Shown: positions 4,595 through 16,204, numbered from the stretch's first letter. The stretch: 64,000 nt of DNA from Candidatus Multivoradales bacterium (GCA_965248925.1 CBDFLE010000005.1:1760001-1824000); one strand, 5' to 3'. Program-made: numbers and translations. The notes: generated by a model from the sequence alone, not told the origin.

Positions 4595-4906
4595 CTAGGG
4601 AGACTTATCGTCACAATGGGCCAGAGCCACCTCGACGGTCTCGCCCTCAGGCTCCGAGGCGACCACCTCTTCAGCCTGGCAGAGGGTCCAACTCGGGTTC
4701 CTACTCTCGTAGTCAGCCAGCTGAACCTTGTAGCGGATCCCCGGGTAAGCCGTGCGCACCTTGCCGACAAAAACCGCATCGGCTGAAGAATAGCTAGCAC
4801 AGGGCGTTGCCGATCCCACACAAGAGCAAGATTTAACAGCACCAGCACCGCAGAAGAGCAAGGTCACGACAAACATCGTCGCTCTTAACCACTGAATCGC
4901 AAGCAT
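4595..4906 (-). CDS. Secreted TIMP/NTR-like protein, probably truncated
   Basis: GGAGGT RBS, signal peptide, then CSCVGSATPCASYSSADAVFVGKV, which matches the CxC...AD.VF.GKV start of TIMP-like domains; only 103 aa. Confidence 0.5.
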   Translation of the reverse strand: MLAIQWLRATMFVVTLLFCGAGAVKSCSCVGSATPCASYSSADAVFVGKVRTAYPGIRYKVQLADYESRNPSWTLCQAEEVVASEPEGETVEVALAHCDDKSP

Positions 4907-4954
4907 GCAGGGAACCTCCATCTACCATCATTGCGCCGCGGCCGGATGCTTAGC

Positions 4955-5341
4955 TCAGAACATCCGCGAAGCCATCTCCACCAAGGCAACGCCCGCCGGC
5001 ACCAGAGCGCTGCCAGTTTCGGCGGCGTTCTTCAACACCTCGCTGGCGGTCTTCAGCTTACCCAGCACGGCGGCGCCGTTGGGCCGCGACTTCTCCAGCT
5101 GCTGCCGGGCCCCCGCTAGCTCAGCGTCCACCACTTCAGTGATTTCGGCGTCCAGACCACCGCGATCGAGCTCACCCCGCAGCTGGTCCAGCGCCGCCAA
5201 CAGCTCGCCGAGCGAAGACCCACCAGCCTGCTGAACCCGAGCTTTTCCAGCCGCCAGAGTGGAGCCGACCACGCTGCCGCCCACCGCAATTCCGCCGTTC
5301 GACGCGCTGACTGATTGGGGATCGTGCTTATCTTCCGGCAT
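4955..5341 (-). CDS. Small protein with N-terminal amyloid-like (BASS/RHIM-like) motif and C-terminal amphipathic helical bundle
   Basis: AGGAAGGTGA RBS; VSASNGGIAVGGSVVGSTLAAG motif; helical C-terminus ending in a hydrophobic helix (SALVPAGVALVEMASRMF). Confidence 0.7.
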   Translation of the reverse strand: MPEDKHDPQSVSASNGGIAVGGSVVGSTLAAGKARVQQAGGSSLGELLAALDQLRGELDRGGLDAEITEVVDAELAGARQQLEKSRPNGAAVLGKLKTASEVLKNAAETGSALVPAGVALVEMASRMF

Positions 5342-5378
5342 CGCTTCACCTTCCTAATTTGGATTATTGTCGAAGCAA

Positions 5379-5406
5379 CAGAAGTCAGAAATCAGGAATC
5401 AGAATT
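5379..5406. repeat. Four imperfect tandem heptamers
   Basis: CAGAAGT CAGAAAT CAGGAAT CAGAATT, overlapping the end of the NACHT-SUMF1 gene. Confidence 0.6.
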
Positions 5407-8342
5407 CGCCAGGGAGAGAACCACTCGAAAACCGATGTCGCCGAGGAAGTTCCCAGGATCGAACCCGAGCGAGAAGCGCAGCGAGCGAAGTCTCCGGAAT
5501 TCCAGTAAGACCCTCCCCTGAGGATCCTGAAGCCTCTTCTTTCAACTTCTTCCCTCTCGTCTGGCTGCCAGCGATAGCCGTACTGCTCCGACCGTGCATC
5601 TTCGCCCCATAGGGTCGAAGTCCACTCCCAGACATTGCCAATGGCGTCTTGTAAACCGAACCCGCCCTGCCCCTCTGGGAACATTCCCACGGACGAGGTT
5701 TGGCTGAGGCCGGTCTCGCGTACATTGGCTTTCTCGGGATCATACTGCGTCTTCCAGGGCCAAATGGTCTGGGCTCCGCCTCGGCTAGCCCGCTCCCATT
5801 CAGCTTCGTTGGGCAAATGTACCCCGAAAGGTTGGCGGCCAACGCCTCGCGGCAGGGGCGCTCTGCGGGTAGTTCTTAGACGCCGACCTAGCCAGCGGCT
5901 GAACGCCAGCGCCTCGAACCAAGAAATGCCCACCACCGGCCGGCTGGGCGAGGCCCAACGCGGATGCCCCCACCAAAAAGGCAGCTGGCGCTTCTCCGGC
6001 GGGCGCCGAGCGAGCCAATCGAGCCAGTTCTTGCGCTCTTCTTCACTCAACCCTTCGATTTCAGGCTCCAACTCACCGCGCAGCCAGGCTAGGCCGCGCT
6101 GGCCCCAGAGATCTGGGTCGTCGTAGTCGACTTCTCGTAGGAAAACCGCGTATTGGGTGTTGGTGATCGGATAGCGACTGATCCAGAAACGGCGCAGCTT
6201 GACCGGGTGAGCGGGCTTTTCCCAGTCCTTGGCCTCGGGGTCGTCGTCGGGGCTGCCAAGGATGAAGCTACCGCGAGGGATGGTCAGCCAATCGATGTCG
6301 GGCCAGACAGTTTCGCCCACGGTGGTGGTGGCGACGCCGGGCCGCGAATCGCCCAAACGGCCGAGGGCATCGCCGGCTTCGAGGCGTTCTTTGGCCGGTA
6401 GATGGCCGCCTGCCACCAGGCGGCTCAGCCATTGGCGAATACGCTCCAGCTGCATGGCGAGGGTGGGCTCGTCCGGCGACAGAAAAGGTGGCTGGAAGTT
6501 GTTGGCCGTTCCTTGCTCTGCCGCGGCCTGGCCCAAGCGTAGCTCGATCGCCAGCAGCCCGGACACCAGGGCACGCCGCCACTGAATATCCTTAACCTGA
6601 TCGACCTCATCTGGAGGATCGCTGGGGAGCAGCAAGAGCAGGGATTCGAGCAGCGACCCGGTGCCACCGCGAGCGATCTTGCCGTAGCCCAATAGGACGA
6701 CTTCCCGCCACCACAGAGGGTCGACTTCGAGTTGCCGGATCAAGGCTCTGGAACCGCCACGATCGGCAAGATAGTGCGCCGCCAGGTATTCCTGAATACA
6801 ACGGTGCGGGAACATGTACACCCCGTCGCGGGGACTGATCAGAAGGCCGGCACGGTCGCGCAAGTAGGCGGTGAGTTGGCGGGTGGTGAGGTCGCCTTGT
6901 AGATCCTCGAAGGCCTCTAGCAACTCATGATGACTGATGTCGGCCGGCCGGTCGACGGTCTGGCCGCTCTCCAGGGTCTCAGACTCAGCCTCGCGCTGGC
7001 GCTGATGAACCGCGAAGGCCAGGGCCGCCAGGGCGTTGAGCAAGCGGGACTCGGGAACTTTGAGCACTCTGAGGATGCTGGGTTCGGTGATCTCCTTTTG
7101 GCTCTCGTCGTCCCAGACCCGGCGCTTGTCTTGCCATCTGTAGAGCAGCAGGTCAGTGCTGGTGGCGTAGAGATCAGCGCGGTCTTCAGGCAACTTGCCG
7201 CTGGCGTGCAAGGTCGCCATCAAGGTAAGCAGTAAAGGCTGCGAGGCCAGGTCTGCGAGGTAGCTCTGATCAGCGATGGCATCGCGCAGCTCCTTGGCTT
7301 TGGCCGCAACATTGAGCGCATCGGTATCTAGCGAGGAACGCACCACCTGGTACCAACGCTCGATGAAGGTCTCGACCTGCGGCTGGCGAAATGGCGCCAC
7401 ACCCAGCGTCTCGAAACCGGACAGCGGCCGGCTTTCTGCGCTGTAAGCGTAAGGACGGGCGGTGACCAGCAGCCGCGATGGCTGCTCGCCGAAGGAGGCC
7501 GCCAGGTCTTCCACCGCCTGCAGCAAGCGCTCGCGGCGGTCGGCGGTGGTCGGCACTTCGTCGAGGCCGTCGAGAATCCACAGACCTCCATCGGTCAGCA
7601 GGCGGCCGCGTAGCAAGTCCATCAGCCGGCGGGCACCGGCCGGATCGATTGCCTCGTCCAGGCTGGCTTGCAATGCGGTCCACAGCAGGCTGGCTTGACC
7701 TTGGCCCAGCCGCGGCACACTGCCCGCCAGTTGACGCAGGGTGAGCCGCACCGGTACCAGCCCCACCAGGCTTTCGGGTAGGCGCCGGTCGCCGGTGGCT
7801 AGCAGGAAGCAGAGGTGCTGAGCGAAAGTGGTCTTGCCGGAGCCCGGATCACCGAGCAGGATGTGATGCCGGGCCTGGCCAGAGACCGCTTCGAGCAAGT
7901 CGCGGTGCTCTCCGTCAGCACCGCGCGCTAGCCGCCAGGACCAATCCCGGCAATCTTCGTCCTCTTTCGGGACGGGCGGCGTCGAGACTTCCAGCTCGAC
8001 GTAGACCTGCGACAGGCGAAGGTCGCTGTTGGCGGTGACGAAACGTGGCTGCACCTTGCCCAGCGGTAGTCGCTCGGCGCGGCCAGCTAGCCACTGCAGG
8101 TAGCTGGCGTAGAGATCATCGTCCGAGAGCGCATTCGCATCACCGACAACAATCTGGGCGTTAATGACGCTGCCGCCAATGGCTAGAGCACCCGCGCTGG
8201 CACTGACCGGCCTTGGCGCCTCTGCGGCCTGCTGACCTAGCTCTTGCTCTATGCGTTGCTTGCGCTCTTCGAGTGCGCGCATCTGCTGCTCGATGTCTTC
8301 GAGCACTGCGGCGCTGCCATCCTGTTTCAATCGATCGGACAT
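5385..8342 (-). CDS. NACHT (STAND) NTPase with C-terminal FGE-sulfatase/SUMF1 (C-type lectin fold) domain; 1-nt frameshift near the 3' end
   Basis: Walker A GDPGSGKTT, Walker B WILDGLDE, PLLLTL and FPHRCIQEYLAA; FGE motifs PITNTQY, PVVGISW, LPNEAEWERA, GNVWEW, RGGS. ATG 8342 has a GGGGAG RBS. The canonical GFRVV end is in another frame (stop 5392). Confidence 0.9.
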   Translation of the reverse strand: MSDRLKQDGSAAVLEDIEQQMRALEERKQRIEQELGQQAAEAPRPVSASAGALAIGGSVINAQIVVGDANALSDDDLYASYLQWLAGRAERLPLGKVQPRFVTANSDLRLSQVYVELEVSTPPVPKEDEDCRDWSWRLARGADGEHRDLLEAVSGQARHHILLGDPGSGKTTFAQHLCFLLATGDRRLPESLVGLVPVRLTLRQLAGSVPRLGQGQASLLWTALQASLDEAIDPAGARRLMDLLRGRLLTDGGLWILDGLDEVPTTADRRERLLQAVEDLAASFGEQPSRLLVTARPYAYSAESRPLSGFETLGVAPFRQPQVETFIERWYQVVRSSLDTDALNVAAKAKELRDAIADQSYLADLASQPLLLTLMATLHASGKLPEDRADLYATSTDLLLYRWQDKRRVWDDESQKEITEPSILRVLKVPESRLLNALAALAFAVHQRQREAESETLESGQTVDRPADISHHELLEAFEDLQGDLTTRQLTAYLRDRAGLLISPRDGVYMFPHRCIQEYLAAHYLADRGGSRALIRQLEVDPLWWREVVLLGYGKIARGGTGSLLESLLLLLPSDPPDEVDQVKDIQWRRALVSGLLAIELRLGQAAAEQGTANNFQPPFLSPDEPTLAMQLERIRQWLSRLVAGGHLPAKERLEAGDALGRLGDSRPGVATTTVGETVWPDIDWLTIPRGSFILGSPDDDPEAKDWEKPAHPVKLRRFWISRYPITNTQYAVFLREVDYDDPDLWGQRGLAWLRGELEPEIEGLSEEERKNWLDWLARRPPEKRQLPFWWGHPRWASPSRPVVGISWFEALAFSRWLGRRLRTTRRAPLPRGVGRQPFGVHLPNEAEWERASRGGAQTIWPWKTQYDPEKANVRETGLSQTSSVGMFPEGQGGFGLQDAIGNVWEWTSTLWGEDARSEQYGYRWQPDEREEVERRGFRILRGGSYWNSGDFARCASRSGSILGTSSATSVFEWFSPWRILIPDF

Positions 8343-8555
8343 AGTGTTTTCTCCCCAATCTAGAGGCAATCCCCAAGACCCATCGGCCGGGTCACGATGC
8401 AAGAACAAAACTGTGCTCGACAATCATATCGTCATGGCTCGCCATACTGGGAAACCCACCACTGGACAGGTTAGAATCGCCGAGCACCCAACGGGTGCAA
8501 GTGTCTTTCCTGGGCCACCGCCCAAGTCTCAACCAGCCTGCTGCGAGGGATCGTG

Positions 8556-11474
8556 ATGATCGATCGGTCTGCGTCCGTCGAGAGCCTGCTCGCTCCTAGC
8601 GATACTTTTGCCCGCCGCCATCTGGGCTCGTCTAAGGCCGATATCGGACAGATGCTCGACGCTGTCGGCGCCGCTTCGATGGCGGAGCTGATCGACCAGA
8701 CCATTCCGGCGGCGATTCGCTGTCAGCAAGAGCTGCGGCTTGAGAGCCTCGACAACGATCAACCTCTCGGTGAGCACGCTCTGCTGCAACGGCTGCGGCG
8801 GATGGCTGGGCGCAACCGGCTGATGCGCTCTTACCTCGGCATGGGCTATGCCGACTGCCGGGTGCCGGCGGTGATTCAGCGCAATATCCTGGAGAATCCG
8901 AGCTGGTATACCCAATACACCCCTTATCAGTCGGAAATCTCTCAAGGCCGGCTGGAGGCGCTGCTGAATTTTCAAACGGTGATTTGCGACCTCACCGGCC
9001 TGCCGGTGGCCAATGCCTCGCTGCTCGATGAGGGCACCGCCGCTGCCGAGGCGATGAGCGTTTGCCACGCCGCCGCCCGGCGGCGACGGCCGGCCTTTTA
9101 TGCCGCTGAGAACTGCCACCGGCAAACCCTCGCGGTGCTGCGCACTCGGGCTGGCGGATTGGGTATCGACTTGCGGCTGGGACCAGCTGCCGAGGCGGAT
9201 TTCGCGGCCGGGGATCTCTGCGGTCTGCTGCTGCAATACCCAGCCACTGATGGCCGCATCTACGATTACCGGGCGCTGATCGCCAAAGCGCAGCAGGCCG
9301 GCGTGCGGGTGGTGATCGCGGCCGACCTGCTGGCTCTGGTGCTGCTGCGTTCACCGGCGGAGCTAGGGGCCGATATCTGTGTCGGCTCTAGCCAGCGCTT
9401 TGGCGTGCCGCTGGGCTTTGGCGGACCCCATGCCGCATTTTTCGCCATCACGGAGTCGCTGAAGCGACAGCTGCCGGGACGAATTATCGGCATTTCGAAG
9501 GATCGGCTGGGCCAACGGGCACTGCGCATGGCGCTGCAAACCCGCGAGCAGCATATTCGCCGGCAGAAGGCCACCAGCAATATCTGCACGGCGCAGGTCT
9601 TGTTGGCGATCATGGCCGGCATGTATGCGGTCTACCATGGCCCGCAGGGATTGCGGCGCATCGCTCGGCGAGTGCATGCCATGGCCGCCGCCCTAGCGGC
9701 GGGCCTGCGCCGGCTTGGCCTGGACCTGCCGCCGCAGCCGTTTTTCGACACCGTGCGGGTGGGGGTCGGCGAGGGACTCGCCGATCTGGTGCTGCAAAGG
9801 GCGCTCGAAGCCGGCATTAACCTGCGCCGGCTCGACGCCGACACGGTCGTGGTGGCTCTTGACGAGACCGTCGAGCTGGCCGATCTCGACGATGTCCTGG
9901 CAGCTTTCGCCGCCGCCGTCGGCCGGCCGGCCCTTGGCGCCGCTGAGCTCTTGGCGGCGGCTGATTTGGAACTCTGCGAGCCTCATCGCCGGACTTCGGA
10001 CTTCCTCACCCACGAGGTTTTCCAGCGTTACCACACCGAGCATGAATTGCTGCGCTACATCCACCGGCTGGCCAACCGGGATCTGTCGCTGACCACCTCG
10101 ATGATCAGCCTCGGCTCCTGCACTATGAAGCTCAATGGCACTTCCGAGATGTTGCCGGTGAGCTGGCCCGAGTGGAACAGCCTGCATCCGTTTGCGCCAG
10201 CCGAGCAAAGCGCTGGCTACGCTGAGCTGTTTCGTACTCTCGAAAGCTGGTTGGCGGAGATCACCGGCTTCGCCTCGGTGTCGCTGCAACCCAACGCCGG
10301 CTCGCAGGGGGAGTACAGCGGTTTGATGGTGATCCGCGCCTATCACGCCGCCGGTGGCGAGGAGCGGCGAGATGTCTGTCTGATTCCCGTTTCGGCCCAT
10401 GGCACCAACCCGGCATCGGCGGTGATGGCCGGGCTGCGAGTGGTGACTGTGGCCTGCGAGGAAGGGGGCGACATCGACCTCGAGGACCTGCGAACCAAGG
10501 CCGCCGAACTTGGCGACCGGCTGGCGGCACTGATGATCACCTACCCCTCGACCCACGGCGTGTTCGAGGAGAGTGTCGGCGAGGTCTGTGCCGTGGTGCA
10601 CGCCCATGGGGGGCAGGTCTATCTCGATGGCGCCAACATGAATGCCCAGGTCGGCCTCTGCCGACCCGGGGATTTCGGTGCCGATGTCTGTCATTTGAAT
10701 CTGCACAAGACTTTCTGCATTCCCCACGGCGGCGGCGGTCCCGGCATGGGGCCGATCTGCATGGCCGAGCACTTGGCTCCCTTCTCTCCCGGCCACCCAC
10801 TGATGAAGGTCGGCGGTGAGGCGGCGATGGGAGCGGTGGCGGCGGCGCCCTGGGGCAGCCCGTCGATCTTGCCGATTTCTTGGGTCTACATCGCGTTGAT
10901 GGGTACCTCCGGACTGCGCCGAGCCTCAGAGCTGGCGATCTTGAATGCCAACTACATGGCCCAGCGGCTGGCCGAGCACTTCCCGATCTTGTTCCGCGGC
11001 GCTCGCGGCCGGGTCGCCCACGAGTTCATTCTCGACTTACGGCCGTTCAAGAAAAGCGCCGGGGTCGAGGCCGAAGACGTGGCCAAACGGCTGATGGACT
11101 TCGGCTTCCACGCCCCGACCATGTCGTGGCCAGTGGCCGGTACGCTAATGATCGAGCCCACTGAAAGCGAATCGCGGGCCGAACTCGACCGCTTCTGCGA
11201 GGCCATGATCTTGATCCGCGGCGAGATAGAGGCGATTGAAGACGGTCGCCTCGACAGCAGCGATAATCCGCTGAAGAACGCGCCGCACACCGCCGCCGAA
11301 GTGACCGCAGAGGAGTGGCAGCACCCTTATGGTCGACAGCAAGCGGCCTTCCCCGCGCCGTGGGTACGGGAGGCCAAGTTCTGGCCCCATGTGGCGCGGG
11401 TTGATAACGCCTTTGGCGACCGTCATCTAGTGTGCTCCTGCCCGCCGATCGAGAGCTACCTGCCCCCGAGCTAG
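8556..11474 (+). CDS. gcvP: Glycine dehydrogenase (decarboxylating), glycine cleavage P protein
   Basis: [48 protein letters not shown] and [18 protein letters not shown] (PLP lysine). Confidence 0.97.
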
Positions 11475-11976
11475 CTGGGCTGAGGACCCCTTGGCCGCTG
11501 GCCAGCGATGAACGGGCGGAGAGCCGCCAGGGCAGCCATCAAGACCGTTCGGCAGACTCCCTGTCAGAAATCGGGCGCTGATCGCGAATCCCCGTAGGAA
11601 GCCAACCATCCGACCTCAGTAGCGCACCATGGCCCGATCGGGTAGCTCGGACTGTCGGAAACCACGGGGATCGTCATCTATGACCTGGGTCCTGACTGAG
11701 AACTCGCCTGGCGGACGAACTCTAGCGCTCGCCGATTCCGCCGCCACCACGGCTGAAGAGCCCAAGCTGTCTGCCCAAACCGGAGTACCATCCCATAGAA
11801 TCGTGCCCGACGCCTCTTCTCGGGTCGAGGTGAATGGGGACCGGCGCCAACTAACTGCCCGCAGCGTGCGCCCTGTCGCAGCCGCCAAGTCGGCCGCGAA
11901 CCGGGGATCCCCACGCCGTCACCAGGAGCGATTTCAGACCATCGGCGAAGTAGCGCGTCAGAGCTTGGGGAATTGG

Positions 11977-12588
11977 ATGGTCGAGGAACTCACACCCACC
12001 CTGGTCAACGGCGCGGTCGCAGGCGACCCGAAGGCACTCAGCCGCCTGATCGATCTGCTGACCCCCCTGGTGCAAGTGCGCGTTGCCCGCATTCTGCTGC
12101 GCCGGTCGGCGGGCAATGCGCAACACGACATCCGCCAGGATGTCGAGGACTTTGTCCAAGAGGTCTTCATCCAGCTTTTTGCTGACGGCGCCAAAGTGCT
12201 GCGCAGCTGGCAAACCGACCGCGGTTTGTCGCTGGCTAACTTCGTCGGTCTGGTCGCTGAGCGGCGGGTGATCTCAATCCTCCGCAGCGGCCGGCGCAAC
12301 CCCTGGCGAGAAGAGCCGACAGCGCCGGAGGAACTCGACGTGATTCGTCAAGACGGGCCTGAGAACCAAGTAGCCAACCGCGACCTGCTACGCCAGCTGC
12401 TCGGCCGCTTGCAGCAGAAGCTCAGCCCGCTTGGCTGGAGGCTGTTCCACTCGATTTTCGTCGAGGAGAAAACAGTGACGGAAATCGTCGCCGCGGAATC
12501 GATGACCGCGGATGCGGTCTACGCTTGGCGCAGCCGTCTGCGCCGGCAAGCACAGAAGATTCTCCGGTCCTTGGAGTCAGAGAGTTGA
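11977..12588 (+). CDS. ECF-family RNA polymerase sigma factor
   Basis: GDPKALSRLI, DVEDFVQEVF (sigma2) and C-terminal sigma4 HTH TVTEIV...ADAVYAWRSRLR. Confidence 0.85.
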   Translation: MVEELTPTLVNGAVAGDPKALSRLIDLLTPLVQVRVARILLRRSAGNAQHDIRQDVEDFVQEVFIQLFADGAKVLRSWQTDRGLSLANFVGLVAERRVISILRSGRRNPWREEPTAPEELDVIRQDGPENQVANRDLLRQLLGRLQQKLSPLGWRLFHSIFVEEKTVTEIVAAESMTADAVYAWRSRLRRQAQKILRSLESES

Positions 12589-12627
12589 CCTTTGTTGCGA
12601 ATACCCCTCTAGAGGAGGGTAAGCAAA

Positions 12628-13413
12628 ATGACCAACGATGAAATAATGCAATCTCTGGCTCGGCTGGCGCAGGACGACGAGCGCTGGCTACGACTCAGTG
12701 ATGGCAGCCTGCCGGCGGCAGAGCGAGAGCGCTTGGCCAGCCGAGCAGCCAAGGACCCCGAACTCGGGCGGGCTTACGAAGCCTATCGGCCCTTGTCCGA
12801 CGAGATCCGCGGCCGGATAGTAGAGCGTGCTCGGTTGAGTATCGGCCATCGCAAGGCATCCGCGACGACCAGCGCGGCAGAGGAGGAGGGCCAAGCTCCT
12901 CAGAGTCGCTGGTTCCGCCAGCAGCGCTGGGCCCTGCCGGCGATCGGTGCCTTGGCCGCTACCTTGCTGCTGGTGTTGTGGCCACGGGCGACGCTAGCGC
13001 CGCTGCCCGGATTTGCGTTGGAGCACTCGGGAGGTATCAGCGTCGAACGATCCATCGTGGTGACCGCCAGCACCTACCATCCGGATAGCGAGATCAAGTT
13101 GCTGCTGCGCCCCGAGACCGCGATCGAAGGCGAACTCGAAGCAGCTTTGTTCGCCGATCTCGGCGGCGGTCTTGAGCGCCTTGCGATCGAGCCGACGCGG
13201 ATCTCGGAGGCCGGTAACGTGTTGTTCGCGGCCGATCGCTTTGCCGACCTGTTTCCTGGCGTCGCCAGCGGTAGTGTCGAGGTTTGGCTGGTAGCCGGCC
13301 GCACCGGCAGCCTACCGGATGCCGCCACCCTGGCCGCCCTCGATACGACCACCGCCAGCGGCGCAGATTGGTCAGCACAATCTGCAAGATTGCCCTTCGC
13401 TGAGGTACCATGA
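12628..13413 (+). CDS. Putative single-pass anti-sigma-like membrane protein
   Basis: AGGAGG RBS; helical N-terminus, TM segment WALPAIGALAATLLLVLWP, beta-rich C-terminal domain; directly follows the ECF sigma gene. Confidence 0.65.
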   Translation: MTNDEIMQSLARLAQDDERWLRLSDGSLPAAERERLASRAAKDPELGRAYEAYRPLSDEIRGRIVERARLSIGHRKASATTSAAEEEGQAPQSRWFRQQRWALPAIGALAATLLLVLWPRATLAPLPGFALEHSGGISVERSIVVTASTYHPDSEIKLLLRPETAIEGELEAALFADLGGGLERLAIEPTRISEAGNVLFAADRFADLFPGVASGSVEVWLVAGRTGSLPDAATLAALDTTTASGADWSAQSARLPFAEVP

Positions 13414-13420
13414 TGGCCGG

Positions 13421-16204
13421 TTGAACAATCAAAGCCGCAGAATAGGCCTTTTAGCCAACGCTGGCATACCAGTGCTGGCCCTGGTATGCGCAGCTTGTCA
13501 GATGTCCCCCCCGCCGGCAGAGTCCACTCTCTCCACGAGCACCCCGCGAGTCGAATACAACGGCTGCTTCACCACCATCGGCGACGCTTGCGCCCCGTAC
13601 GACCCGTTTCAAAAAGCTAGTCAGCTCAGACTGTGGATCTGGCCCGCGGACACCGTGGTCGAGGTGCGAGATGACCGCCTCGAGTGGCCGGCAGACGAGA
13701 CCGACTCTGCGCCCATCCAAGGCGGCAGGCTGTACATTATCGAGCTGCCGCGCGGCACCTATGAGTTGGTTCTGGGCTTACGGCTTGGCGGACTGGAGGT
13801 CGACTGGCGGCTGGAGATTATCGAGCTGCCGAATTCGACCTTGTTGGACGACATTCTGGCCAACAAGCCAGAGATTCTCGCCCGGGCTGGGGCGGCCGTC
13901 GACCAAGACTTGCCCGCAGCCCATCTCGGTTTCGCCCATTGGGTCTTGGCGAATCTGCTCAAGACCGCCAACAAAGAAGCGAGCTACACCCATCTCGAGC
14001 GAGCCATCGAGTACCACGGCGCCGCTGGGTATCACCTCGACCAACTGGCCAGTGCCGCCAACCTATCTTGGCAGTTGCTTTACGACGGCTCCCCCGAACG
14101 CGCCCGCGAGGTCATCGAAGCGATCCCCCAGCGGGCGCGAGAGCCGGGGCTGGCCAGCTACCGCCGGGCCTACCAACGAGGACTGGTAGCCGCCCGCACC
14201 GGCGATGCCCGCAACGCCCTGCGACTCCTGGGCAACGCGGTGCGCCAAGCCGAGCGCCTCGGTTTCCGCGATAAGCGCCGGCAAGCTCTACAAGTTCTGG
14301 CCAACCAACTGCTGCTGCTTGGACGGGGCAGCGAAGCGCTACGCATTTTTGCCGACCTGGAGCAAGACTTCGCCGGACTGGGACCTTGCACCCAGGCCCG
14401 CATACTCGACAATCAAGCCTGGCACATGCTGCTAGAGTTCGAGAGCAGACGCTTGGCCGAGGATCCACTGCCCAAACTGCTTGAGGCCCGCCACCTACTG
14501 GCCAATTGTCGCGCCAGCAAGAGGAATCGGGCCGAGCAAGAAAGAGAAATCGAGCAGCAAACGGTCAACCAGGCCACCAATCTGGCCCTCGCCTACCTGC
14601 ACGCCAACCAGCTCGACAAGGCTGCTGATGAACTCCAGGAGGCGCGCCGCATCCGCCAGCGGGCACAGCTCTGGCAGGTCTTTTGGTGGCAGGACATCGA
14701 GGCCCGGATCGCGCTGGCCCAGCAGCAGCCGCAGAGAGCACTGACTCTCTACGAGCAACTCGAAGCCTCCGCCAGCAGCGGCTACATGCCCGACGTTCAC
14801 ATCCGCGCGGCATTGGGCAAGGCGAGGGCACGCAAGGCGCTCGGCGACGCTGAAGAGGCCTTACGAATCCTCGGCGACAACGAGATCCTGCTGGAAGAGG
14901 CAGCGCTGCAAGTACCGATCGACATCGATCGTGCTAGATTCTTCGCCCGCCGCGAAACCAGCACCCGCCTGTATTTGCAGCTATTGATCGACGCCGGCAA
15001 GAAAGAGCAAGCTCTCAGCGTCGCCCGGTTGGCGCGTTCACGAGTCCTGAGAAGTCTGCTCCGCGACGTTCACCTGGCTCGACTGACAGCACCAGATCGC
15101 CGCCGTTGGCAAGTTAAAATCGATCAGTACACCGCCTTGCGCAGCCAGCTGGACCACGAGCAAGCAGACGATTGGCAGCTCGCCAAGGACCAACTGAGCC
15201 AAGTCAGAGCTAAGCGCTTGGGCCATCGGCAGAGCTTGAAGCACCTGCTGGACGAGGCCTATGCCATGCTCTCAGAAGCACGCTCGAGCGCAGCTGAATG
15301 GGGCCGCCTGGAGAGCCTTCCCAAACTCGAGACCGGCGAAGTCCGGTTGCTCTACCACCCCCTACCCGAGGGTTGGGTGGCATTCGTCGAGAGCGCGGCC
15401 GGGATCCACTTCGAGATTCTCGATCAAATCGATACCGCCGCTGATCCCGAGATCTTGGCGGCGGTTCTGTTGCAGCCCTTCGCCCGGGAGATCGCCGCCG
15501 CCAGTGCTCTGCGGGTACTTCCCTACGGTGCGATTCGTGCTGTCGATTTCCATGCCTTGCCCTTCGGTGACGCTCCCCTGCTAGCCACCCGAACCGTGGT
15601 CTACGGTCTCGACCTGCCCCCCGCGCCACGGTCGACGGCCGCTGACAAGCCGGTGGCACTGGTGGTTGCCGATCCCACCGGCGACTTACCCCACTCGCGC
15701 CAGGAAGCACGAGCCATGCACTTCGCGCTAAGCAAGAAACAGCCTTCGCAGCTGCTCGAGGGCAGCTCTGCCGATGGTGATGCGGTGCGCCAAGGGCTAG
15801 CCCATAGTGATTTCTTTTACTATGCCGGTCATGGAGTGTGGGCTAGCTGGGAAAGTGCGCTGCCGCTGCACCACGGCTCGCGCCTTGATGTCGGCGACGT
15901 CCTAGCACTGCCACGGGTGCCCCGCCAGGTGATCTTGTCGGCCTGCGAGGCCGCTCGCTCACCGATCGGTGCGGCGGAGAGCGTTGCCGGCATTGCCCAA
16001 GCTCTGCTCACCGCCGGCTCCCAACAGGTAGTCGCCGCCACTCGGCCAGTGAACGACCAAGTCGCCGCCAAGTTGATGGCGATCCTACAACGGCAGTGGC
16101 TTGCCTCTGGCGACTTGGCAGAAGCTCTGCGCCGAGCACAGCTGCAAACTCGCCAGGAGAATCCCCAAGCCGACTGGGCCAGTTTTCGCCTGCTCGAGCG
16201 CTAG
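13421..16204 (+). CDS. TPR-CHAT (caspase-like) protease, putative lipoprotein
   Basis: Catalytic dyad motifs FYYAGHG and VILSACE; ALVVADPTGDLP; long TPR region; N-terminal signal with lipobox-like LALVCAAC. TTG start at 13421 is inferred. Confidence 0.85.
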   Translation: MNNQSRRIGLLANAGIPVLALVCAACQMSPPPAESTLSTSTPRVEYNGCFTTIGDACAPYDPFQKASQLRLWIWPADTVVEVRDDRLEWPADETDSAPIQGGRLYIIELPRGTYELVLGLRLGGLEVDWRLEIIELPNSTLLDDILANKPEILARAGAAVDQDLPAAHLGFAHWVLANLLKTANKEASYTHLERAIEYHGAAGYHLDQLASAANLSWQLLYDGSPERAREVIEAIPQRAREPGLASYRRAYQRGLVAARTGDARNALRLLGNAVRQAERLGFRDKRRQALQVLANQLLLLGRGSEALRIFADLEQDFAGLGPCTQARILDNQAWHMLLEFESRRLAEDPLPKLLEARHLLANCRASKRNRAEQEREIEQQTVNQATNLALAYLHANQLDKAADELQEARRIRQRAQLWQVFWWQDIEARIALAQQQPQRALTLYEQLEASASSGYMPDVHIRAALGKARARKALGDAEEALRILGDNEILLEEAALQVPIDIDRARFFARRETSTRLYLQLLIDAGKKEQALSVARLARSRVLRSLLRDVHLARLTAPDRRRWQVKIDQYTALRSQLDHEQADDWQLAKDQLSQVRAKRLGHRQSLKHLLDEAYAMLSEARSSAAEWGRLESLPKLETGEVRLLYHPLPEGWVAFVESAAGIHFEILDQIDTAADPEILAAVLLQPFAREIAAASALRVLPYGAIRAVDFHALPFGDAPLLATRTVVYGLDLPPAPRSTAADKPVALVVADPTGDLPHSRQEARAMHFALSKKQPSQLLEGSSADGDAVRQGLAHSDFFYYAGHGVWASWESALPLHHGSRLDVGDVLALPRVPRQVILSACEAARSPIGAAESVAGIAQALLTAGSQQVVAATRPVNDQVAAKLMAILQRQWLASGDLAEALRRAQLQTRQENPQADWASFRLLER

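Follow-up and report, generated by a model that had tools for sequence, protein, structure and literature searches.

The analyzed window, a stretch of 64,000 nucleotides from Candidatus Multivoradales bacterium (GCA_965248925.1 CBDFLE010000005.1:1760001-1824000), contains two adjacent genes on the minus strand: a gene for a NACHT-FGE(FGS) STAND NTPase (5385..8342) and a gene for a 128-aa partner protein (4955..5341). Both genes, as well as a short Gly-rich motif in each of them, were found at exactly the positions given in a previous reading based on the sequence alone (the sequence-only reading). The longest open reading frame of the NACHT-FGE gene (5385..8423) opens at TTG 8423. The ATG at 8342 is the likely start; an RBS-like GGGGAG (8351-8356) is located 8 nt 5' of it, and the resulting 985-aa form is also present on the database record. 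In Pfam searches, this protein matched the NACHT NTPase domain (PF05729, E = 2.8e-12; 7350..7865, residues 187-358 of the TTG-start translation) and the FGE-sulfatase, or C-type-lectin-fold (FGS), domain (PF03781, E = 7e-45; 5466..6293, residues 711-986), as the sequence-only reading had assigned them. The NACHT clade is defined by Walker A together with a D[GAS]hDE Walker B signature (10.1101/2022.07.19.500537), and the translation contains Walker A GDPGSGKT and Walker B LDGLDE. The FGS domain is the presumed ligand sensor. No enzymatic effector domain was found in the NACHT protein by Pfam.

The sensor-side Gly-rich motif VSASAGALAIGGSVINAQIVVGD (8139..8207, minus strand) was located by BLASTP, local alignment, and a motif HMM. 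It is preceded by a long N-terminal helix, residues 2-40 (8223..8339, minus strand). In the AlphaFold2 monomer model of residues 1-100, the pLDDT is about 60-83 for this helix and below 50 for the motif. The short coiled coil previously proposed ahead of the motif is weakly supported by this model: one long helix is predicted at its place, and the model is of low confidence overall (mean pLDDT 58.5).

At the end of the sensor gene, the reading frame is shifted. The frameshift site is at about 5460/5461, and the conserved FGE tail DPGNFLGDIGFRVVLSLANSDS is read out of frame up to a stop codon (5392..5461, minus strand, read and translated), by which the last ~23 in-frame FGE codons are lost. 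Homologues of the sensor close in frame with ...GFRVVLSLANPDF or ...SLANSES. The PF03781 match in the window ends at profile position 237 of 255, vs. position 254 of 255 in intact homologues. The frameshifted sequence was found with zero differences in Logan contigs from three runs of one sample, the source sample. The window's copy of the NACHT-FGE gene may be defective.

The partner gene follows on the same strand, 43 nt after the NACHT stop, in line with its earlier description as directly downstream. The spacer (5342..5384) contains an RBS-like AGGAAGG (5349-5355) 7 nt ahead of the ATG of the small gene and no terminator-like site. The partner-side Gly-rich motif VSASNGGIAVGGSVVGSTLAAG (5246..5311, minus strand) was located by the same three methods. 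In the AlphaFold2 monomer, residues 1-42 have a pLDDT of about 50, with no secondary structure in the motif, and residues 44-127 (4961..5212, minus strand) form the predicted helical bundle. Its four helices (44-60, 65-82, 89-105, and 107-127) all have pLDDT >90, and it closes with the conserved C-terminal helix and terminal Phe of its family. An HMM built on the helices only matches this bundle at E = 2.3e-25. No family matches for the small protein were found in Pfam, NCBIfam, or PADLOC, including zero Pfam matches to HeLo, HeLo-like, SesA, and Bell. The helical domain gave no sign of a killing activity: it is acidic, with a mean net charge of -2.3, the hydropathy of its last helix (mean Kyte-Doolittle 0.45 in 63 members) is not that of a transmembrane segment, and only generic four-helix bundles were obtained as fold matches.

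The two proteins have a Gly-rich motif of about 23 residues in common (BLASTP, 13/27 identities, E = 2e-5 in a single comparison). The local alignment score of both motifs is 70 (z = 10.8), which was reached by 0 of 500 composition-preserving shuffles; the alignability claimed in the sequence-only reading is thereby borne out. Strict and medium regular expressions derived from the motif pair, applied in a six-frame scan of all 7,980,589 bases of the genome, retrieved only these two genes. The motif HMM likewise found only these two at E<=1e-8, with one noise match at E = 0.36, so neither approach gave a convincing third copy in the 8-Mb genome. The motif-coding DNA is only 34/66 identical (52%) vs. 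55% amino-acid identity, and the motif was not picked up as a DNA repeat; therefore, the likeness is held at the protein level, with no recent gene conversion. BASS motifs are described as about 25 aa long, rich in G/N/Q/V/I, and poor in K/P/L (10.1101/2020.01.06.895854). The region before the helices, compared with the helical part rather than with UniProt, has 17% Gly, 10.8% Val, 7% Asn, 2.5% Leu, and 3% Pro, with neither an enrichment of Gln (3.6%) nor a depletion of Lys (5.2%). By the published description, the motif fits BASS motifs in length, disorder, and composition with respect to Gly, Val, Asn, Leu, and Pro, though not Gln and Lys. It also carries a Gly-punctuated hydrophobic pattern like that of beta-arch or amyloid signalling motifs.

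Close homologues of the small gene were found at 11 loci, representing only about four lineages of the window's motif class. In 8 of these (the window, L013, L016, L020, L021, L022, L023, which is rearranged, and L024), a NACHT-FGE gene lies upstream on the same strand. At the remaining three (L014, L015, and L025), the contig ends <=230 nt upstream, and a different upstream gene was found at none of the 11 loci. Thus, the expected linkage to motif-bearing STAND genes holds wherever the contig allows. Every readable NACHT N-terminus has an alignable motif (W_A, L021_A, L021_B, L013_A, L013_B, and L023_A). The minimal two-gene unit is kept in the window and in L022/L024; rearrangements and frameshifts were found at L020 and L023.

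The motif located before the bundle, judged by alignment scores, is matched to that of the neighbor in three unrelated classes. In the window, the motif score of the own pair is 70 vs. at most 44 with foreign partners. At locus L029 of genome G448, GNVSGTVVQFGDHN is matched to GNVNGSAVQFGDHN at the C-terminus of an upstream 274-aa protein (67 vs. <=34 with foreign partners), and on a Nostoc plasmid (L031) an Asn/Gly-rich motif is common to the small protein and an adjacent FGE-family protein (88 vs. <=41). In all three cases, the motif immediately precedes a domain that the helix-only HMM assigns to the helical family (E = 1.6e-9 to 3.9e-17). Among closely related class-A loci, partners cross-match: four different NACHT-A proteins give scores of 66-69 with the small protein of L021, and the highest score for that of L013 (46) is with a foreign partner, vs. 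43 and 37 for its own. The pairing of motif and neighbor is thus seen at the level of the three unrelated classes rather than at a fine scale, and the independent examples are few (three motif classes and about four lineages of the window's class). In the related genome G008, this motif class is found in two NACHT proteins, a small protein, a protein with a TIR_2 domain, behind which the motif lies, and an NB-ARC protein, where it is internal, between WD40 and PNP_UDP_1. Published FASS/BASS motifs also accompany effector types such as TIR and PNP (10.1101/2020.01.06.895854). These observations support homotypic motif coupling of the sensor to the output, similar to BASS or EAD coupling. The motif probably works as a docking tag and relays the alarm of an immune-type sensor to its partner, in the manner of known amyloid-signalling immune pairs.

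The family built on the bundle includes at least 213 clusters (213 representatives). The bundle is invariably found at the extreme C-terminus, behind interchangeable Gly/Asn-rich motifs. Among 150 representatives, 52 have the motif class of the window, 49 have another class, 16 have both, and 65 have neither. Domain fusions in the same set include Peptidase_C14 (12), CHAT (4), DUF4062 (3), TIR_2 (2), and SEFIR (1), as well as EAD1, EAD7, and EAD10 (1 each). Since the bundle is found behind caspase, CHAT, TIR, and EAD domains, its role may be that of a receiver or adaptor and not of a killing domain.

Judged from profile comparison, the bundle is distantly related to TCAD2 (PF19971, "Ternary complex associated domain 2"), another all-helical C-terminal domain of ~90 residues that also occurs behind TIR. 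The hhalign comparison of 63 family C-termini with 44 of the 48 listed TCAD2 proteins, helices only, gave a probability of 90.3 and E = 1.5e-6 over 60 columns with 7% identity, scores that can be inflated for helical proteins. TCAD2 proteins P0215, P0218, P0226, and P0239 carry the same Gly-rich motif classes before the domain. The hallmark C-terminal helix of the bundle family, ...WA..LF, lies outside the TCAD2-aligned region, and the TCAD2 Pfam model has no match on the window's small protein (P0001) or elsewhere in its genome. DUF5955 (PF19380) matched 2 of the 150 representatives at E<=1e-3, both below the cut-off (20.4 bits vs. 27.1 for P0200), and did not match P0001 in Pfam; an Atlas feature search returned DUF5955-named clusters at 0.92. 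A distant family member, at L030, has no obvious motif-matched neighbor and adjoins a restriction-modification methylase gene.

Several known systems resemble this pair. In the Bell/NLR pairs with BASS1-10 (10.1101/2020.01.06.895854), the genes are likewise collinear neighbors, and a ~25-residue motif is common to the N-terminal region of a NACHT or NB-ARC protein and a small helical partner. As in the family described here, one partner domain is combined with several motif classes, and the motifs are also found on TIR and CHAT proteins. The motif is C-terminal in Bell proteins, whereas here it precedes the helical domain (5246..5311 vs. 4961..5212 on the minus strand), a difference already pointed out in the sequence-only reading. 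Further differences are the TCAD2-like helical domain, which has no Bell, HeLo, or SesA match, the FGS sensor in place of TPR or WD40, and the host, an acidobacterium instead of an actinobacterium or cyanobacterium. The likeness to BASS1-10 is judged from their published description. The Bab/Agp pair (BASS11) of E. coli (Ibarlosa et al., 2024, 10.1101/2024.11.07.622273) also combines a small helical protein with an adjacent large sensor and a common Gly-punctuated motif of ~23 residues, and it provides the experimental precedent for abortive-infection phage defense through amyloid conversion by such a pair. Bab has a C-terminal motif and an active hydrophobic N-terminal helix, whereas the window's protein has an N-terminal motif and no evident hydrophobic helix; the Agp sensor is TPR-GreA/B-C-PIN rather than NACHT-FGS. 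A possible relation of the window's motif to BASS11, suggested by a few residues that the paper mentions, is only a lead. In Podospora HET-S/NWD2 (10.1101/2024.11.07.622273), the layout is analogous: the N-terminal motif of a NACHT NLR templates the matching motif of an adjacent helical executioner. However, this system is fungal, its sensor is WD40, HeLo is N-terminal to two motif pseudorepeats, and the executioner is known to act by membrane insertion, whereas an executioner role of the window's bundle is putative.

The FGE/CLec sensor had also been considered unusual. This is not the case, since STAND NTPase-FGS systems are already published as a common architecture, often DGR-diversified (PMC8195603; PMC10907252; 10.1101/2022.07.19.500537). 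Similarly to the window, these systems (Kaur et al., 2021, PMC8195603; Kibby et al., 2022; Dore et al., 2024) have NACHT with a C-terminal FGS/CLec domain and an N-terminal non-enzymatic element in common with separately encoded effectors. Their usual wiring is through a homotypic adaptor on the NTPase, with further copies on effectors encoded within the operon or at other sites of the genome (PMC8195603; PMC7159879). These adaptors are EADs, whereas the common element in the window is a short disordered peptide; known EAD/bDLD models have no Pfam match at E<=1 on either protein.

Based on these comparisons, the following mechanism is proposed. The C-type-lectin-fold FGS domain of the sensor would bind an invader-derived ligand, and NTP-dependent NACHT oligomerization would gather the N-terminal Gly-rich motifs into an ordered beta assembly of the amyloid or beta-solenoid type known from BASS/FASS signaling. 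This assembly would recruit and template the matching disordered motif of the 128-aa protein, and the templating would concentrate or refold the TCAD2-like bundle, the sole candidate output of the operon. The NACHT protein is without an enzymatic effector domain and the genome is without another motif gene; therefore, the small protein is the only visible output. Coupling of both proteins through the motif is considered probable. Given such coupling, a templated beta assembly is slightly favored over a finite complex. The whole statement, a two-gene NLR-type conflict module with motif-templated signaling from the sensor to the bundle, is offered tentatively, with a chance that falls a little short of even. 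The role of the module is probably anti-phage.

In one alternative, rather unlikely but the strongest of those considered, the wiring is unchanged but the motif acts as a finite adaptor without amyloid character, following the EAD principle: the Gly-rich peptides of both proteins would pair on the NACHT oligomer in a small, hetero-oligomeric beta sheet and so recruit the bundle protein with no self-propagating fold. Small homotypic adaptor domains are normal for STAND-FGS systems (PMC8195603; PMC7159879), the spread of the motif over the G008 proteins suits an adaptor pattern, its internal position between WD40 and PNP_UDP is atypical of terminal amyloid motifs, and the EAD1, EAD7, and EAD10 fusions make the family part of the EAD network. 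However, neither protein matches a known EAD model, and the motif is only ~23 residues long, disordered in the monomer models, and of a beta-arch/amyloid type rather than globular. Moreover, many family members have two or three tandem motifs, similarly to HET-s and BASS1/6 effectors (10.1101/2020.01.06.895854).

It is improbable that the small protein serves as a motif-bearing decoy or brake, comparable to CARD-only and PYD-only proteins of inflammasomes, that caps the NACHT motifs and sets the activation threshold while the real output is elsewhere or lost. Its helical domain is indeed without catalytic or membrane features, has few near-invariant family positions (only Pro87, Leu96, and Leu127), and is appended behind genuine effectors (caspase, CHAT, and TIR), a plausible spot for a regulatory cap. 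On the other hand, as there is no other motif gene in the genome and no effector domain in the NACHT protein, a brake would lack anything to regulate, and the window and L022/L024 retain the two genes as a minimal unit. A functionless likeness, either a low-complexity coincidence or a partial-duplication relic in a decaying pseudogene pair, would agree with the Gly/Ala/Ser/Val-rich motif, the frameshift near the end of the NACHT-FGE gene, and the rearranged or frameshifted L020 and L023, but is very improbable given the shuffling result, the recurrence of motif sharing at the same structural position in three unrelated classes, the DNA vs. amino-acid identity, which speaks against recent duplication, and the otherwise intact reading frames with a small protein that is predicted to fold with high confidence.

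Returning to the templated module, it is possible, though on balance doubtful, that the 128-aa protein represents an undescribed and widespread "mirror-image" class of amyloid-signalling partners. In such proteins, a C-terminal TCAD2-like bundle would be switched by templating of interchangeable N-terminal Gly/Asn-rich amyloid address labels that match neighboring sensors (NACHT-FGS, FGS-only, and others). If so, the same labels would connect caspase, CHAT, TIR, and PNP effectors in a single network, and a templated label would make the bundle oligomerize into an active form, amounting to a new fold for execution or signal amplification. Amyloid signaling would then also include DGR-type antigen-receptor NLRs, as well as Acidobacteriota, which are not named among the multicellular lineages with BASS motifs in the account of Dyrka et al. 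(10.1101/2020.01.06.895854). The association of STAND-FGS systems with DGRs is frequent but not obligatory (PMC8195603). At L013, RVT_1 and bAvd genes are located between two NACHT-FGE genes, an arrangement that fits the published DGRs with two targets and uncharacterised N-terminal extensions (PMC10907252). No RT or Avd gene adjoins the window's gene; RT homologues are found elsewhere in the genome.

The sensor gene of the window, encoding a STAND NTPase with NACHT and FGE (FGS) domains, and the small gene encoding its 128-aa partner are collinear on the minus strand. The sensor ORF extends over 5385..8423, with the likely start at ATG 8342 and GGGGAG located 8 nt upstream; the corresponding 985-aa form is present in the protein collection. 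This protein matches the Pfam NACHT (E 2.8e-12) and FGE-sulfatase (E 7e-45) models, and its translation shows a Walker A (GDPGSGKT) and a NACHT-type Walker B (LDGLDE). The ORF of the small gene (4955..5341) lies 43 nt after the sensor stop codon, with AGGAAGG ahead of its start. No terminator-like site was found between the genes and no promoter-like site in 4700-8700, where the 2 terminator-like sites are not above the level of shuffled sequences. The pair is flanked upstream by gcvP on the opposite strand, and downstream by small ORFs without assignment and a 474-aa HTH-containing protein. The small protein belongs to no Pfam or NCBIfam family, and PADLOC assigned it to no convincing family (best match E 0.027).

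The sequence-only reading had located an alignable motif in the sensor (8139-8207) and in the partner (5246-5311), and both copies were confirmed there. In BLASTP, they have 13 identities over 27 residues (E 2e-5 for a single pair). Their local alignment score, 70, is 10.8 SD above composition-preserving shuffles and was reached by 0 of 500. When all six frames of the 7.98-Mb genome were scanned, strict and medium patterns matched the sensor and the small gene only; these patterns were derived from the two genes, so the informative part is the absence of further matches. A loose pattern gave 8 unrelated matches. The motif HMM proposed by the same reading was built from ten sensor- and partner-side motifs; it found the two motifs of the window (E 4.6e-10 and 1.4e-8) and, in the same genome, no other match better than E 0.36. 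The coding DNA of the motifs is identical at 34 of 66 positions, and a DNA repeat search in 4800-8600 gave short, chance-level repeats only; the similarity is therefore maintained at the protein level. Judged by these sequence comparisons, the match between sensor and partner is not due to chance.

Matching between neighbours was analyzed in a matrix of six partner-side and eight sensor-side segments. The own neighbour was clearly the best in three unrelated motif classes. In the window, the own-neighbour score was 70, versus at most 44 for foreign partners. In locus L029 (genome G448), the upstream 274-aa protein, without known family, has at its C-terminus GNVNGSAVQFGDHN, the counterpart of the motif GNVSGTVVQFGDHN (67 versus at most 34). 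In a Nostoc plasmid (L031), an Asn/Gly-rich motif is common to a pentapeptide/transmembrane protein, which has the helical domain at its end, and to the N-terminus of the adjacent FGE-family protein (88 versus at most 41). By a helix-only HMM, all three are true family members (E 1.6e-9 to 3.9e-17). Among closely related loci of the window's motif class (class A), partners cross-match freely, and the small protein of L013 scores slightly better with a foreign partner than with its own; matching is therefore resolved by motif class, not at fine scale. Thus, the expected co-variation of motifs was seen between the three unrelated classes and not within class A. For L030, a distant member, no evident neighbour with a matching motif was found. 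In genome G008, the motif HMM additionally found the class-A motif behind a TIR_2 domain (L037, 3492-4283, plus strand) and between the WD40 repeats and PNP_UDP_1 of an NB-ARC protein (L036, 715-4239, plus strand), both away from the NACHT-FGE locus. Such effector types accompany published fungal and bacterial amyloid signalling motifs, according to 10.1101/2020.01.06.895854.

Close homologues of the small gene were found in 11 loci: the window, genome stretches L013-L016, and metagenome contigs L020-L025. A NACHT-FGE gene is located upstream on the same strand in 8 of these 11, and the contig ends within 230 nt in the remaining 3; none has a different upstream gene. The predicted location of small-gene homologues beside motif-bearing STAND genes was thus borne out as far as the contigs extend; the 11 loci represent about four lineages and so are not independent. 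All six readable NACHT N-termini carry the alignable motif. Two NACHT-FGE genes each were found in L021 and L013: one long, with an N-terminal helix as in the window, and one short, with the motif right at its N-terminus. The G008 locus L013 also has an RVT_1 reverse transcriptase and bAvd, a complete DGR-like pair (9503-10929, minus strand), located between NACHT-FGE genes 10968-13853 and 6183-8711. This arrangement is exactly like that of the DGR-diversified NACHT-CLec "antigen sensors" with uncharacterised N-terminal extensions, as described in PMC10907252. Unlike L013, the window's locus has no RT/bAvd pair, and no TR-like copy of the FGE 3' region was found in the genome except a 59-bp, 78% match within another FGE paralogue region.

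Several further arrangements were observed. Homologues of DGR-type RTs are located elsewhere in the window's own genome (C5:146556-147413, C6:1661128-1661928, and C6:4816175-4817119), two of them at most about 11 kb from other, distant NACHT paralogues (C5:142445-149918 and C6:4827312-4828385). The metagenome locus L023 (119-2518, plus strand) is rearranged, a deletion fusing the NACHT-FGE gene to a small-gene remnant, and in the representative P0004 (195 aa) a small-protein homologue runs into an FGE-domain tail. L030 (314-3429, minus strand) encodes a family member of 224 aa whose N-terminal part differs; its gene directly follows one for a 773-aa protein of the N6-methylase/HSDR_N restriction-modification type, which suggests a defence-island context.

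Word-based searches retrieved nothing beyond the query's own protein, both for the small protein (P0001) and for residues 60-125 of the NACHT protein, its motif region, which returned the 985-aa sensor of the window alone. A related-genome search gave small-protein homologues in G008 and G012, two genomes of the same family, and a 4-sequence alignment (A1) was the query for the related-locus search. Of 1.84 billion representatives searched with the four-sequence profile, 213 proteins had E<=1e-3; they represent clusters at 50% identity, and 50 of them had E<=1e-10. The helical domain is located at the extreme C-terminus in all family members found, usually ending in ...WA..LF. Among the best 150 of the 213, Pfam domains ahead of it are Peptidase_C14 (12), CHAT (4), DUF4062 (3), TIR_2 (2), and SEFIR, EAD1, EAD7, EAD10, and pentapeptide repeats (1 each). 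The stretch preceding the helices is rich in Gly, Val, Asn, Thr, and Ser and poor in Leu and Pro, and the partner-side motif is often present in two or three tandem copies. The window's motif class was found in 52 of these best 150, the class TGGGAYIGG / GGGDFVGRD in 49, both in 16, and neither in 65.

In a second profile search, 48 proteins among the 120 of 284 matches listed have Pfam TCAD2 (PF19971) behind identical motif classes. The helices of the family (63 sequences) and of 44 of these 48 proteins were compared profile to profile, with a probability of 90.3 and E 1.5e-6 over 60 columns at 7% identity. The small protein thus belongs to the TCAD2-like helical domains of NTP-dependent conflict systems, as a new and distant branch. 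The name TCAD2 comes from Pfam and is absent from the main text of PMC7159879. The Pfam TCAD2 model had 0 matches in 401 genomes of the phylum, but also 0 in 14 control genomes, and is uninformative here. Weak signals in the family point toward DUF5955, whose model gave one sub-threshold match in the window's genome, elsewhere than the small gene. No biological paper on TCAD2 or DUF5955 was found among the literature matches listed. The distribution is sporadic, with 3 positive genomes out of 24 in the taxonomic family and 3 out of 401 sampled from the phylum. No relatives were found in viral contigs with A1 or P0025 as the query; the sole viral locus (L035, query P0039) is a false positive, a coiled-coil ATPase. 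Plasmid searches with P0068, P0022, and P0215 found none, and that with P0011 found the single Nostoc locus.

The helical bundle claimed to follow the partner motif was recovered by AlphaFold2. In the model of the small protein (63-sequence alignment, mean pLDDT 80.7), residues 1-42 are unstructured (pLDDT about 50) and helices 44-60, 65-82, 89-105, and 107-127 form a confident four-helix bundle (pLDDT >90). The model of the NACHT N-terminus, from four sequences only, has a mean pLDDT of 58.5, with a long helix (2-40), the motif (pLDDT <50), and then a further helix. Foldseek found nothing in PDB for the bundle at E<=1e-3. Over 48,161 chains, VIA-align reached a Z of 11.7 at best (ROP-like, designed bundles, invertase or PME inhibitors), which is under the informative level for helical bundles and reflects a generic four-helix match only; no Bell, HeLo, or Bab-like entry was conspicuous among these chains. 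A profile search of PDB sequences gave a best E of 0.18. Prediction of a complex between NACHT residues 1-100 and the small protein scored 0.00 in both runs, without controls, and carries no weight either way. The bundle is acidic, with a last helix unlike a transmembrane segment. The window's protein differs in this from L029 (6217-6612, minus strand) and L031 (5141-7378, plus strand), where that helix is markedly hydrophobic (e.g., ...IASAAGIAIKVVAPFIAGLL); some family branches may be membrane-associated.

The NACHT-FGS protein contains a sensor and a switch without an effector domain, and the only other gene of the genome with its N-terminal label is the adjoining small gene. The simplest reading is therefore recruitment in four steps: ligand would be bound by the FGS domain, the NACHT module would oligomerise, the N-terminal labels would cluster, and the matching label would recruit the small protein. 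For the contact itself, an ordered, templated beta assembly (amyloid or beta-solenoid-like) is tentatively favoured over a finite complex, because the label is short, has glycines at strand-length intervals, and is disordered in the monomer; because it is often in tandem on the partner side and goes with the effector repertoire of the BASS and FASS motifs; and because Bab/Agp provides a bacterial precedent (10.1101/2024.11.07.622273). A finite complex, with the label as a plain adaptor, is the less favoured alternative. Once assembled, the bundle could act as an executioner in the manner of HeLo/Bell/MLKL-type bundles, though it lacks their hydrophobic helix. A role as receiver or amplifier would account for its place behind caspase, CHAT, and TIR domains, and a role as brake is also conceivable. 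Overall, the shared motif, the adjoining pair, and the bundle of the sequence-only reading stand as observations, and its interpretation is supported in part.

That fungal NLRs signal to cell-death effectors in an amyloid or prion-like manner is established; in bacteria, such signalling was shown once, for Bab/Agp (10.1101/2024.11.07.622273), and is predicted for Bell-domain pairs (Dyrka et al., 10.1101/2020.01.06.895854). PMC8195603 and 10.1101/2022.07.19.500537 describe STAND NTPase-FGS systems and their coupling to separate effectors via small homotypic domains, and PMC10907252 their diversification by DGRs. In contrast to the Bell pairs, the partner domain here is TCAD2-like and the polarity is reversed, the label being N-terminal to a domain that is always C-terminal in the protein. 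A third difference from the published systems is the pairing of a peptide label with an FGS-type sensor. Thus, of the layout described as unusual, the N-terminal motif of the partner is indeed opposite to Bell, whereas an FGS sensor on a STAND NTPase had already been published. A partner with an N-terminal motif and a TCAD2-like domain was not described in the amyloid-signalling or EAD/FGS literature searched; BASS/EAD supplementary tables may list relatives (e.g., the 44 extra pairs of Dyrka et al. or the source data of Kaur et al., 2020). Comparative evidence partly supports reading the locus as a coupling of sensor and partner of the BASS/EAD type, in which the partner family is newly delineated. 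The profile matches also point to this family as a second, larger one, of 213 clusters, tied to TCAD2 of ternary conflict systems. The sensor is of the FGS/CLec "antigen receptor" kind hypermutated by DGRs. If the coupling is true, it would offer a way into the "N-terminal extensions" of NACHT-CLec proteins, hitherto without explanation, would assign a function to an uncharacterised domain family, and would supply a compact two-gene test system for activation transmitted by a short peptide label. If the motif is a plain adaptor, the EAD repertoire would still gain a new peptide-sized member.

Beyond gcvP, the window encodes a 961-aa protein (13319-16204, plus strand) in which a 700-residue N-terminal part without assignment precedes a C-terminal CHAT domain (E 3.1e-31). 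Flanked by ORFs without a Pfam family, it may represent a second conflict-type locus; no copy of the shared motif is present there.

The 3' end of the window's sensor gene contains a one-base frameshift (5392-5461, minus strand), which places the last ~23 FGE codons, from about 5460, out of frame. The conserved tail ...DPGNFLGDIGFRVVLSLANSDS* (GFRVVLSLAN...) continues in a different frame, and 24 unrelated residues close the annotated one. The FGE Pfam match stops at profile position 237 of 255, versus 254 of 255 in homologues; the FGE end is intact, for example, in the L021 and L013 pairs. The stretch 4900-8450 is identical in independently assembled contigs from three runs of one sample, possibly the source of this genome, so an artefact confined to one assembly does not explain the frameshift. 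The sensor may be impaired in this organism. A +1-frame peptide, ...WF[CS]PWRIL[NI][PS]DF, is shared by NACHT-FGE genes, paralogues as well as orthologues, at their 3' ends in the window (about 5385-5440), L013, L016, L020, L021, and L039. The last ~50 nt are thus conserved at the DNA level and could be a DGR homing (IMH-like) element.
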